Part shown: piece after piece, positions 8,782 through 35,827 of the stretch
How positions within the stretch are numbered: the stretch's first letter is position 1
Layout: the number at the start of each line of letters is the position of its first letter
Source: a virus
Lineage: Duplodnaviria; Caudoviricetes
Length of the DNA: 60,783 nt
Reading direction: 5' to 3' (one strand)
IMG/VR virus record: IMGVR_UViG_3300042922_000610
Coordinates: 1 to 60,783 of that record
The notes under the pieces: model-generated
Databases searched by the model: none
What the model was told of the DNA's origin: nothing
The model's input: only the letters and a program-made list of their open reading frames with translations
Made by a program: the position numbers and the translations under genes

Positions 8782-8951
8782 AGGGCAGCCGCGAGCACAA
8801 GCGATATATGGCGCTCTTGCGTAGCGCTCGGGGGAAGCCCAACGGCGTGGTGGGGTCTTGGGCGATGGATGATCTCAGGCTATTCAAGCTGGAGACAGAC
8901 AAGAAGTGGCGAAAGGTAAAGCGCCGTCCTCGCGATGGCTACGCCGCATAA
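8778..8951 (+). CDS. Small basic hypothetical protein
   Basis: GTGA overlap; last gene of rightward arm. Confidence 0.5.
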   Translation: MKGSREHKRYMALLRSARGKPNGVVGSWAMDDLRLFKLETDKKWRKVKRRPRDGYAA

Positions 8952-9083
8952 CCGTCGGAAAAATAAAAAACCCACCAAACCGTCTTAACGCGGCATGCGG
9001 CTCCTAGAGCATTGTGGGTTAATCGCGACCGTTGCCACAGCCTCGCCTTACTGGCGGGGCATTTTTTCATCCTGCTGGCGCAG

Positions 9084-9380
9084 CTATTCCGCTGCTTCAA
9101 GCATCTTCACTTCAATGGGAGGTTTCTTGCGGAGCCCCATAAGCGGGCAGCGAGCGAATTTAAGTCTGCATCCGGTACATTCCGGCTCGCTTGCGGACAT
9201 CGGAACCAGAACCTCTGAGAGCATCCATCGGTATCTTCGTGGTCCCAACTCAATCTCTCGGAGATGATACTGCTCTTTGCCCCCAGTCGTCCTGCTTCTG
9301 CCAATCACGATAGATGCCATCATTCCCGATTTGTGATTGACACACTGCCCCTCATCAAATGCAAAACTCATTTCATGCAA
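9084..9380 (-). CDS. Hypothetical Cys-containing protein
   Basis: GAGG RBS upstream, isolated leftward ORF. Confidence 0.55.
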   Translation of the reverse strand: MHEMSFAFDEGQCVNHKSGMMASIVIGRSRTTGGKEQYHLREIELGPRRYRWMLSEVLVPMSASEPECTGCRLKFARCPLMGLRKKPPIEVKMLEAAE

Positions 9381-9518
9381 CCCTCACGTATTTACTGGTT
9401 ACGTCCCTCGCTTTGAATGTTCGTTGCGCTTCGTCACGCGCGCAACCTAAAGATTTTAGGGTTTTGTCATAAATGCGTACCGTTCACTCCCATGTGATTC
9501 GGCGATCGGCGCCGAGCC

Positions 9519-9707
9519 GGGAGTTAGTAACACGCCGTGTAGACATGCCGGTGGCTTTTAGCGCTCCGGCGAGCCGGAGATGCCTGGACATAACGCACCG
9601 CTCCCGGCCCTAAAAGCCAAGGCGAATGCGCCAGCCGCTAAGCTGCGCAAGGGTTCGGCATGCACGGTAGGCGTGCGCGCCTATACACGGTCAGGGTTAC
9701 TAAGCCC
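9519..9707. ncRNA. Candidate large structured non-coding element (strand unknown)
   Basis: Nested complementary pairs TTAGTAAC/GTTACTAA, CCGTGTA/TACACGG, CATGCCG/CGGCATG, TGGCTTTTAG/CTAAAAGCCA plus three internal hairpins. Confidence 0.55.
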
Positions 9708-9993
9708 GCAACAATTAATACGCCTTTCGGGCTACGACGCAACTAGGCCGACTGGCTTATTGTGGCCAATCTTGGGCGTGTTGCGAAATGGTTGTCAGAG
9801 TGTTGCGGAAGGCGGGATCTGCGGAGCCAGATCGGCACATCGTATGACTATTGGCGGCGAGAGGCGGCAGAACGCAGTGAGAACATGCGTCTTTATGCGC
9901 TGTACAGCTTTTGTACGTAAACGAGCGTTTTTCGGTACATCTTCGCGCTTTGTTCCGTACACCGACGAAGGCTTGCGCGTGCTGCGCTTCAGC

Positions 9994-10006
9994 CAAGTTA
10001 TTGATT
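9994..10006 (-). promoter_or_regulatory. IHF-like site in attP arm
   Basis: Reverse strand AATCAATAACTTG matches WATCAANNNNTTR. Confidence 0.55.
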
Positions 10007-10020
10007 TTCTTGAAGGTTAA

Positions 10021-10068
10021 TGGTGCTGCTAGAGAGATTTGAACTCTCGGCCTCTCCCTTACCAAGGG
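10021..10068 (-). mobile_element. attP: attP core: 3' half of tRNA-Thr(GGT)
   Basis: Reverse complement CCCTTGGTAAGGGAGAGGCCGAGAGTTCAAATCTCTCTAGCAGCACCA: anticodon loop TTGGTAA, T-arm, CCA end; no 5' half; near integrase. Confidence 0.9.
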
Positions 10069-10162
10069 TTTTGTTTAAAGTCTATTTTGACTTTGCTTGT
10101 AGGGTGTTCAGCGTGGCTTAAATTGTGCTTGTACAAGATTTGTACATATTCGCGAAATGGGC

Positions 10163-10195
10163 AAAAGAAACCCCGCCGAAGCGGGGTTATTGTTT
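10163..10195. terminator. Terminator downstream of int operon (possibly bidirectional)
   Basis: AACCCCGC-cgaa-GCGGGGTT flanked by A- and T-rich tracts. Confidence 0.7.
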
Positions 10196-10426
10196 GAGGG
10201 CTGCGTCGATCAAGTGATCCCAGATGTCGAGAGCGCGGAACCCATCAGCATCCGCATTGCTTGCGGCCTCATTCATGGCGTCGGTAGGTTCGCGCATGGC
10301 TCTAATGATGTCGCGCGCAGTTTCCTCATAATTCTTCCACAACGGCATGTCGGCATAAGTGGCGTTCTTGTCACCATACTCTGCGGCGCACAGCACCTTC
10401 GCCACCCGCTCAATCATCTCGCTCAT
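10187..10426 (-). CDS. Hypothetical phage protein
   Basis: MSEMIERVA...AMREPTDAM..IDAAL motif common in alphaproteobacterial phages. Confidence 0.75.
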   Translation of the reverse strand: MSEMIERVAKVLCAAEYGDKNATYADMPLWKNYEETARDIIRAMREPTDAMNEAASNADADGFRALDIWDHLIDAALKQ

Positions 10427-11577
10427 GCTTCCCTCCTCTTCTCCAAGTCCGTCCTGCGCCCAGTCCCTTCCGCCAGCCTACCTGAACACGCCAGCGGATC
10501 TTCCAGCCACGGCAGTGCGCGCCAGGTATCGGGCACTGGCAGCCTGTTGATTGCCTCGATGAGAGGCGCCTGCGGCACGTGGGTGTAGTGGCGGCTCATG
10601 TCGTCGGCTGCGTGGCCGAGTATCTGATCCTTGATGTGCGGGTGGACGCCAGCCACGACGAGGCCAGTAGAGCATGAGTGGCGGCCCGTATACGGCGCGA
10701 TGTCCTTAATGCCCGACCGTCGGCGAGCGCCGTTGATTGCCGACTTCAAGCCTCCGCCGCCTCGCCCCTCCTCGTCGGTCGCAATCTGCTCGTACGGTTC
10801 GCCACGCGGCGTGCGGAAGAGTCGGGGCTCCTTGTCTAGTCCTGGCCGCTTGAGAAGCGATGCGAAGATCGGCACCAAGAACTCATGCATAGGGATGCCG
10901 CGCGGCTCGCCAGTCTTAGTTTTGTAAAGAGAAATCCACCGCCCAGTAACGTTGACCTCTTCTACCTCAAGAGCAAATAGCTCGATCGGTCGCATGCCGC
11001 TATAGAAGAGCGTAGTCATCAGCATTGCCGGCCCTGGCGACATAGCGGCGATGAATCGTGCCGCATGCTCGTATTCAACCGGGAACGTGCCAGCGCGGCG
11101 CTTTGTGATCCGAACGACATTCGTGCCCTTTGGCTTCCTCGGGCGCGACCATTGGCGAACGTCGGCCCAGCCGTTCTTAACGGCGTGGTTCCAGACAGCC
11201 ACAAACGGCGTGTAGCACTGGCGATTGCGAGTCTCCGGCTGCGCCGTCGGGTACAGCTTGCGGGCCGCGTCGTCGAGATCGTTCTGCTGGATGTCCTTTA
11301 GTGGCGTGTTGTAGAAGTGCCCTAGCAGCCCATCGTCCAGCCCGCCAATGAAGCGAGCGTCGCCGCCAGCCTTCAGGTACGATTCGACTGCCTGCGCGAA
11401 TGTGCGCGTGGCCTTCGGCCCGAAGACGTGGTCGCTTACGAGGCCAGCTTCTTTTTTGACCCTGATTGCTTCCGCGACTTCTTTGTCGTGAGTGCGAGTA
11501 GACTCGCGGACAGCTTGTCCATGGACGGTGCCGGAGATCCACCAGACCTTACCGCGCTTGTAGAGTTTGAGGGGCAT
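10423..11577 (-). CDS. int: Tyrosine integrase
   Basis: SGMRPIE (R), KTK, YTGRHS, ILGH, HY catalytic residues. Confidence 0.95.
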   Translation of the reverse strand: MPLKLYKRGKVWWISGTVHGQAVRESTRTHDKEVAEAIRVKKEAGLVSDHVFGPKATRTFAQAVESYLKAGGDARFIGGLDDGLLGHFYNTPLKDIQQNDLDDAARKLYPTAQPETRNRQCYTPFVAVWNHAVKNGWADVRQWSRPRKPKGTNVVRITKRRAGTFPVEYEHAARFIAAMSPGPAMLMTTLFYSGMRPIELFALEVEEVNVTGRWISLYKTKTGEPRGIPMHEFLVPIFASLLKRPGLDKEPRLFRTPRGEPYEQIATDEEGRGGGGLKSAINGARRRSGIKDIAPYTGRHSCSTGLVVAGVHPHIKDQILGHAADDMSRHYTHVPQAPLIEAINRLPVPDTWRALPWLEDPLACSGRLAEGTGRRTDLEKRREA

Positions 11578-35487: not shown

Positions 35488-35827
35488 TGGCACTTTCCGA
35501 CAAGTTGTCACCTTTATAGGTGAAGGGGTGGCGCAGAAAAGCTGTCACCCCACACCTTTCCGGCCGCACAGATTGTTTGCGACGGACGCTCGGCCAGAGA
35601 TGAGCCGGGCGTAACTATTGGCAGGTCCACACGGTGCACAGTTACGACGCTGCACGGTGGATAACCAAAGGCCCACCGCTATGGGAGCCGCCTGCATTCA
35701 ATGGAACCGCCTACGCCTCTCTACGATGCGCACCCTTGGCGGTCACTCCACAGCCCAGCGCCTCTGCTTCGGCACGCGTTGGCCTTCATTACCCTAGCGC
35801 GTCCTCCTCTCGCAGCTTGGGTAATCC

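Follow-up and report, generated by a model that had tools for sequence, protein, structure and literature searches.

The DNA analyzed here is a viral record of 60,783 bases (IMG/VR IMGVR_UViG_3300042922_000610; its whole length is called the window) that carries direct terminal repeats and is a relative of rhizobiophage 16-3. Our subject is an element at 9519–9707, which a preliminary description, made from the letters alone, had placed next to the phage attachment site (attP) as a candidate phage noncoding RNA or single-stranded DNA structure. On one side of it lies a 95-amino acid (aa) open reading frame (ORF) homologous to p053 of 16-3 (9084–9371, minus strand), and on the other a tyrosine integrase gene on the same strand (10426–11577; Phage_integrase, 5e-14; phrog_1, 1.8e-35). 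A minus-strand sequence at 10022–10073 resembles the 3′ half of a transfer RNA (tRNA)—T arm, acceptor 3′ strand, and CCA—with 90% identity to the annotated tRNA-Thr of phage DSS3_MAL1; it is probably the attP core, ~280 nucleotides (nt) away from the element. ARAGORN called no tRNA in this stretch, its GGU anticodon was read by eye only, and 16-3 itself integrates at a site other than this tRNA-like one. Across 9307–9807, the window is 75% identical to 16-3, 79% to Sinorhizobium phage NV1.1.1, and 67% to AP-16-3, with partial matches in two Rhizobium phages. In 16-3, the homologous block is flanked by p053 (minus strand) and by the attP annotated as functional, and neither this record nor those of the other phages bear any annotation within the block. 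Comparison of its relatives identifies the element as a conserved, intricately folded RNA. We favor, with moderate confidence, the reading that the minus strand from 9707 to ~9486 is the 5′ leader of the p053-like messenger RNA (mRNA; 9371–9084), with a promoter of its own and a double-pseudoknot fold that works as a switch in cis.

How strongly do related sequences support a fold? We collected 21 distinct phage-type copies by an exact search with an invariant 21-mer (10 viral and 6 bacterial contigs), to which GenBank phages were added; all come from phages and prophages of the 16-3 type, with the element between the p053-like gene and attP. These were aligned with plain MAFFT, without fitting to any model (alignment A3), and the family fold was derived from a scan of all A3 column pairs plus inspection. 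A covariance model (R1) was then built from nine copies with nested helices only—leaving out the helices called P7 and X—and used to align 53 copies from phages and genomes (alignment A6), which consequently leans toward the modeled helices. Sequences in both alignments are related to one another, and the shuffle counts are not probabilities. With the revised structure, 88.7% of A3 cells are paired, compared with 76.7% in shuffles (none of 500 reached the observed value), and the covariation score is 0.375, as opposed to 0.148 in shuffles (again 0/500) and at most 0.077 when partners are slid. In A6, 94.4% of 2,418 cells are paired (70.0% in shuffles), 46 of the 52 pairs change on both sides, and the score is 0.533 (0.148 shuffled, at most 0.069 slid). 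P1, P7, and X are each 100% paired in A3, and P7 and X, although unmodeled, show four to six pair types at their variable positions in A6. The compensatory changes that the preliminary description had proposed to look for are therefore present, and the 21 copies confirm that the structured element is real and that its coordinates were nearly exact. The lack of a convincing ORF was also correctly perceived: the plus-strand frame at 9580–10020 is not conserved, being broken or shifted in 16-3, NV1.1.1, AP-16-3, and other close relatives, where no overlapping plus-strand frame exceeds 83 aa (16-3, in another frame) or 43–57 aa (the others).

Written in minus-strand sense and judged from these alignments, the family fold is a three-way junction closed by GGGAG/CUCCC (P7), to which a 5′ domain is tied by two pseudoknots (P1 and P2). 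R1 recovers the core at 9515–9707 (GGGCUU ... ACUCCCGGCU; 198 bits, E = 1.2e-45), whose 5′ end would lie at ~9707. The 5′ domain opens with P0 (9694–9707), in which GGG (9705–9707) faces CCC (9694–9696) around a loop formed by the 5′ strand of P1. Its pairs are G-C in 50–51 of 53 copies, and the exceptions are two compensated forms (GAG/CUC and CGG/CCG) and a few G-U pairs, a weak but consistent signal for this helix. The P1 strand (UUAGUAAC, 9696–9703) pairs with 9524–9531 in 99–100% of cells, with changes on both sides at five of seven pairs in A3 and seven of eight in A6. Farther along, CCGUGUA (9684–9690) forms P2 with 9535–9541, the loop of hairpin X, making a pseudoknot that is 96.8–98.6% paired and has changed on both sides at all seven pairs; both P1 and P2 show two to four pair types at each position of A3. 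Three hairpins follow. P3 (9657–9681; GGCGCGCACG/CGUGCAUGCC) is 86% paired on A3 and has one C-A mismatch, which is U-A in 16-3, and its closing G-C pairs become A-U in one copy (L016). P5 (9627–9649; UGCGCAGCUUAGCGGCUGGCGCA) is identical in all 21 phage-type copies and absent from the plasmid-type class of ~145 nt described below. P6 (9606–9618; GGCU...GGCC) is paired in 96.6% of A6 cells, with a stem that varies in length and sequence (e.g., GGCCAA/UUGGCC in L006). An early candidate helix, P4 (GCCGA/YYGGC), was dropped because it clashes with P3.

The 3′ part is the three-way junction itself. P7 joins GGGAG (9601–9605) to CUCCC (9519–9523) in a pseudoknot relative to P1; it lies outside the R1 model and exchanges A-U for G-C and G-C for A-U, with GC 29, AU 16, GU 3, and UA 2 at the A6 pair 284–448. 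Within it, the P8 stem (9549–9600; 9594–9600 with 9549–9554) is 96% paired, with three of five pairs changed on both sides, and encloses AUGUCCA (9585–9591), hairpin P10 (9560–9584), and CUAAAAG (9555–9561). AUGUCCA and CUAAAG are near-invariant among the 53 copies, and relatives carry a variable insert of 0–80 nt ahead of AUGUCCA. Hairpin X (9531–9547) pairs CAUG (9544–9547) with CGUG (9531–9534) around a loop of UC plus UACACGG, the latter being the P2 3′ strand. X, likewise outside R1, shows up to five pair types per position in A3 and six at two positions in A6. Directly 3′ of the core, the phage-type copies have a hairpin of their own, H0 (9499–9515; UCGGCG-CCGAU-CGCCGA), compensated in L006 (ACGACG/CGUCGA) and in L018/L022. 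The crossing of P1 and P2 by P7 and X makes this a double pseudoknot with one continuous 3′ strand, P2b-Xb-P1b-A-P7b (b marking the 3′ strand of each helix). The 5′ domain (P0, P3, P5, and P6) would dock on the junction through P1, which joins the P0 loop to the strand between X and P7, and through P2, which engages the loop of X; this docking would leave the 3′ strand paired throughout, with four different upstream segments. In classical H-type pseudoknots, loop 1 spans the deep groove. The same could hold for P2, whose deep groove may be bridged by the 2-nt UC linker joining Xa to P2b, which would let all helices coexist—a geometric argument rather than a computed one.

This fold redraws the structure first proposed. 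All the complementary segment pairs named for 9519–9707 are present at their positions, and two of the four long-range helices survive with compensatory changes: TTAGTAAC/GTTACTAA, which is P1 (99% of 168 A3 cells paired), and CCGTGTA/TACACGG, which is P2 (99% of 146). The other two, CATGCCG/CGGCATG and TGGCTTTTAG/CTAAAAGCCA, are clade-specific, and at 75% and 53% paired they were rejected as family structure along with the TAGGCG/CGCCTA hairpin (56%). These three pairings nonetheless dominate the single-sequence minimum-free-energy fold, and segments of the TAGGCG hairpin and the CATGCCG helix are taken up by P3. The CTCCGGC/GCCGGAG hairpin overlies the conserved P10, with an extension that is itself clade-specific, while the TGCG.CAGC...GCTGCGCA hairpin is P5, whose invariance in 21/21 phage-type copies makes covariation uninformative about it. 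Overall, about half of the pairings in the nested, multibranched drawing are not the conserved ones.

Which strand carries the RNA? In the minus sense, the paired positions hold 150 G-U/U-G cells against 23 A-C/C-A cells, and P7 and X alone hold 28 against 6. These wobbles, a promoter conserved in position, and the gene downstream together assign the RNA to the minus strand (9707 to ~9486), the reverse of the orientation first drawn; we take the functional RNA to be the minus strand on this comparative basis. A −10-like hexamer (TATTAA, 9715–9720, minus strand) ends 7 nt upstream of the first G (9707), and 17 of 22 phage-type copies have a hexamer matching TATAAT at four or more of six positions in the same register. 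The sequence of the box varies (TATTAA, TATAAC, TATAAG, TACTAA), as does that of the spacer, while its position is kept. The −35-like hexamer, a putative promoter part, is TTGCGT (9737–9742, minus strand), 16 nt upstream of TATTAA; a TTGC-type hexamer occurs at a spacing of 16–18 in most of the 22 copies. Judging by its conserved position only, this promoter would face away from attP, and from it the leader would be transcribed at the start of the p053-like gene's own message. Downstream of the fold, the minus strand shows no intrinsic terminator.

The element also has a consistent position relative to genes. Of 53 copies, 41 are followed within 70 nt, and 51 within 160 nt, by the start of a same-strand ORF of 60 aa or more, whereas the control, the divergent direction, gives 11 and 22 copies, respectively. 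Its behavior is thus that of a 5′ leader to the next gene and not, as first proposed, that of a gene standing on its own at the end of the prophage. In the phage copies, the p053-like proteins make up one family (alignment A7), with no Pfam and no PHROG match. An AlphaFold2 model (pLDDT 79.2) predicts a five-stranded SH3/Tudor-like barrel; a fold search with it returned nothing at E ≤ 0.001 and only SH3/Tudor/PWWP-like barrels at E ≥ 1.7e-3, the best Protein Data Bank match being 5ycq, a Lon specificity factor (E = 1.7e-3, TM 0.60/0.71). In one prophage (L021), two p053-like forms stand in tandem after the leader, an 88-aa form with WRFHIGQ and an 81-aa form with GDCVDH. Elsewhere in the family, the downstream proteins include TraM (PF09228, 6.6e-33 and 1.3e-14), an HTH_3 protein, a RovC_DNA-bd protein, a weakly Rha-like protein, and small membrane proteins. 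Between leader and p053-like start codon, the window has a perfect palindrome, GTTGCGC-N10-GCGCAAC (9423–9446), which the 16-3 clade retains, L019 in a G-U-compatible form; an operator and an additional RNA hairpin are both candidate roles. GTTGCG appears again at 9780–9785, at 9802–9807, and within the −35 region.

How widespread is the family? R1 matched 27 of 151 genomes sampled from the Rhizobiaceae (the family of a Rhizobium host) and 13 of 151 in a class-level sample (11 of 149 without the query's own G001 and the unpublished G195). Many of the copies belong to a short class of ~145 nt that lacks P5, which blastn found in 334 plasmid records (Agrobacterium 185, Rhizobium 77, Bradyrhizobium 19, and others). 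One copy lies on pTiC58 at 149,958–150,107, 63 nt upstream of traM. With members on rhizobial plasmids and in other alphaproteobacterial genomes, the family is not specific to phages, contrary to what had been supposed. The short class carries an extra hairpin and a TATAAG box ahead of the core and more conserved hairpins behind it. Plasmid-type copies L029–L031, L041–L047, and L058–L061 have a conserved 5′ hairpin (loop UACGCG) after the TATAAG box and a 3′ hairpin, GCGG-GGGCGCA-CCGC, between core and traM; a loop–loop contact between the two is possible.

As the preliminary description had noted, the element matches no tRNA, transfer-messenger RNA (tmRNA), 6S RNA, or known ribozyme. Neither these nor the RNase P and riboswitch families of Rfam 15 gave a family-model match to it, and ARAGORN found nothing there. 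On the whole window, Rfam 15 left the element unmatched at gathering thresholds, and cmscan at E ≤ 10 over 8900–10300 returned chance-level matches only, none covering the element. The sole Rfam family in the window at gathering thresholds is the abiF RNA motif (RF03085), far from the element at 35707–35743 on the plus strand (40.9 bits; gathering score 37). We found no published description of the family in a search that stopped short of the supplementary tables of transcriptome papers, where a 5′ untranslated region or small RNA (sRNA) at traM might be listed. The family is large and uncatalogued, and Rfam 15 does not detect the window copy.

What might such a leader do? In the favored reading, the fold would work in cis to switch expression of the gene downstream. 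For members of the 16-3 clade, a second pairing of the 3′ strand is available, with a downstream GGGAGU(UGA...), which would dissolve P7 and P1. In the window, this alternative partner of ACUCCC (9519–9524, the P7/P1 3′ strand) is at 9486–9491 on the minus strand, a run of 6 base pairs (P = 0.02 against 200 shuffles) that closes a hairpin around H0. All seven copies of the 16-3 clade have the alternative pairing, with 6–12 base pairs (P ≤ 0.03 each), and L019 has a matched change (CUCCU with AGGAG). Nearest-neighbor energies of nested substates of the window RNA are similar (−72.8, −67.4, and −68.1 kcal/mol), which makes a switch plausible in the 16-3 clade on this modeling. A downstream antistrand as a family-wide feature is unsupported outside the 16-3 clade, L008, and L031, and a general model of Shine–Dalgarno sequestration found no support in a test of ribosome-site accessibility. 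One copy (L056) differs from the others in having a terminator-like hairpin with a run of seven Us between element and ORF. At 9486–9470 on the minus strand, GGGAG is followed by a mini-frame of four to six codons, as also in 16-3, NV1.1.1, AP-16-3, and L019; it could be a leader peptide or chance.

Several results weigh against this reading. The alternative partner exceeds its shuffle control in only 9 of 53 copies, and blocking the 3′ strand leaves ribosome-site accessibility unchanged on average (mean 0.50 free, 0.52 blocked), with a rise in 7 of 39 copies and a fall in 5. The start codon in the window lies 143 nt past the core, compared with 27–65 nt for the majority of copies (spacers are longest in the window's clade, the window included, at 131–157 nt), and a link to translation would here be indirect. 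As for the promoter, the −35 hexamer is weak, with 2 of 22 copies reaching four of six matches to TTGACA, and a sigma-70 consensus scan of 9000–10200 called no promoter, so the start site at ~9707 is something we infer. The diversity of the downstream genes argues against a metabolite riboswitch serving one pathway, and the nearest named relative, sRNA-Xcc1, is reported as a discrete 88-nt RNA (PMC2996969). Public transcriptomes are neutral: 11 soil runs hold 0.04–0.23 of the sampled sequence words, which is no evidence either way, and four soil metatranscriptome runs gave short contigs of depth 2–4, probably DNA, that show no start, end, or strand.

The strongest competitor is that the element is a stable, free-standing, trans-acting sRNA, as claimed for sRNA-Xcc1, with the gene behind it a mere neighbor or reached by read-through. 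Chen et al. 2011 reportedly described sRNA-Xcc1 as a trans-acting sRNA. It is reported to give a single Northern band of ~100 nt and to map to 88 nt (PMC2996969). The Rfam model of this RNA aligns to the 3′ domain of one family copy (L034, 26.1 bits), the window has 110–140 nt from fold to start codon, and in two copies (L018 and L022) the nearest 200 nt hold no convincing ORF, all of which would suit an independent sRNA. That reading sits poorly with the missing intrinsic terminator after the fold and with the count of 41 in 53 copies for a same-strand ORF no more than 70 nt away (11 in the control). Furthermore, the three copies above the Rfam cut-off (L081–L083) also lie ~35–45 nt ahead of an ORF with a strong ribosome-binding site, and they start right after AT-rich, promoter-like sequence. 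We regard the sRNA explanation as unlikely, although it deserves serious consideration.

A bolder proposal is that the family is a riboswitch-like sensor of a global signal, such as a nucleotide second messenger, that times the regulators of alphaproteobacterial mobile elements, with sRNA-Xcc1 as its minimal form. The regulators in question would be the 16-3-type gene beside attP, antirepressor-like and HTH genes, and TraM, an anti-activator gating Ti-plasmid conjugation. One study reports less TraM protein in an hfq mutant (PMC4201532), a result compatible with posttranscriptional control of traM that says nothing on this element. We consider the sensor proposal doubtful.

Could the RNA instead be catalytic, a self-cleaving or other ribozyme at the 5′ end of mobile-element transcripts? 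Small ribozymes are common in mobile elements, where this family is located, and the compact, multipseudoknotted fold with near-invariant junctions (AUGUCCA, CUAAAG, GUC, and ACCC) would fit one. No Rfam ribozyme family matches at E ≤ 10, however, no conserved candidate cleavage site was identified, and the extra conserved 5′ hairpin of plasmid-type copies speaks against a simple 5′-end cleavage module, leaving catalysis improbable.

Less probable still is a plus-strand RNA or a single-stranded DNA structure. The folding signal for 9519–9707 is modest on both strands (z = −2.72 for minus and −2.46 for plus, with 2 of 200 dinucleotide shuffles folding as well on each), such that the plus strand alone folds nearly as well, and Watson–Crick covariation alone does not distinguish the strands. 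The wobble counts do (150 G-U against 23 A-C in the minus sense), and the strand bearing the wobbles is also the one that reads as sense for the gene downstream, preceded by an ordinary promoter, whereas a single-stranded DNA promoter would need the template strand. There is no conserved plus-strand promoter or terminator, and 16-3-type phages are double-stranded cos phages, which we count against this option. A DNA-level feature—protein-binding sites of an attP arm, or coding by ORF 9580–10020—draws on the nearby attP, the recurrence of GTTGCG (9780–9785, 9802–9807, the −35 region, and the palindrome), and the 146-aa plus-strand ORF in the window, but it is highly improbable given that the functional attP annotation of 16-3 begins downstream of the homologous block, that compensatory double changes in 28–46 pairs are a signature of base pairing and not of protein sites, and that the ORF is not conserved.

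If the cis-acting leader is the right explanation, phage 16-3, a long-studied temperate phage, and the traM circuit, a classic of Ti-plasmid quorum sensing, would share an undescribed double-pseudoknot RNA control element. A posttranscriptional layer would then be added to conjugation and lysogeny decisions in rhizobia and agrobacteria, and the sRNA-Xcc1-type "small RNAs" of integrons, genomic islands, and phages would be recast as gene leaders. Having dozens of covarying pairs, the family would also offer a new, well-sampled class of structured RNA on which to determine structures and screen ligands.

How does the family compare with known RNAs? It shares with riboswitches the extreme 5′ position on an mRNA, helices that vary in sequence, near-invariant junctions, variable peripheral stems, pseudoknots, and, in the 16-3 clade, a mutually exclusive alternative pairing; a covarying, aptamer-like domain in a 5′ leader is what we find. 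It is unlike riboswitches in that diverse mobile-element regulators and small proteins, not one pathway, lie downstream, that no ligand can be inferred, and that the alternative pairing is not general (9/53 copies). QfsR is likewise a structured RNA of rhizobial plasmids: it is reported as a 188-nt sRNA of pTiC58 that is conserved on RepABC plasmids, with several copies per strain (bioRxiv 10.1101/533729). We rejected QfsR as the same RNA, for it occupies 139,075–139,262 on pTiC58, away from the family copy at 149,958–150,107, and R1 found nothing at the QfsR position within the 20-kb pTiC58 stretch searched.

The closest relative is sRNA-Xcc1 (RF02221), which ranges over Xanthomonas/Xylella integron cassettes, genomic islands, and APSE phages. 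It is reported to lie upstream of symE in integron cassettes (bioRxiv 10.1101/2025.06.18.660453) and of an ORF6N gene in APSE phages (bioRxiv 10.1101/2020.03.17.996009), and to occur in several copies in Xylella (PMC12189769). Both RNAs thus belong to mobile elements, and in both a small gene comes directly after. RF02221 had no match in the window at gathering threshold, nor at E ≤ 10 over 8900–10300. In the Rhizobiaceae sample, it matched 11 of 151 genomes at E ≤ 0.01 and passed its cut-off in 3 of 151, and two subthreshold places coincide with full-length R1 matches. The copies above the cut-off (L081–L083) lack the 5′ domain (no R1 match at E ≤ 10), and the strand that makes P1 in our family has its complement downstream in them, not upstream, as seen by eye in 3/3 copies examined (GUUGA/UCAAC, GUUCAA/UUGAAC, and GUUUUGA/UCAAAAC). 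The window RNA differs by an additional ~100-nt 5′ domain (P0, P3, P5, and P6) that forms two pseudoknots with the Xcc1-like part, and its conserved promoter, ~100 nt upstream of the closing helix, argues for an RNA longer than 88 nt. The likeness is in the 3′ part. RF02221 aligns at full length to that part of L034, the highest-scoring family member (26.1 bits; cut-off 53), with its closing helix GGCCGGGG/CCCCGGCC, two hairpins, and single strand mapping onto P7, P8–P10, X, and the P1 3′ strand; the counterparts of its GGCCGGG.../...CCCGGCC helix around two hairpins—P7, P8–P10, and X—are present and covary in our family. On these comparisons, we describe the family as a variant of the sRNA-Xcc1 architecture that is longer and belongs to Alphaproteobacteria and rhizobiophages.

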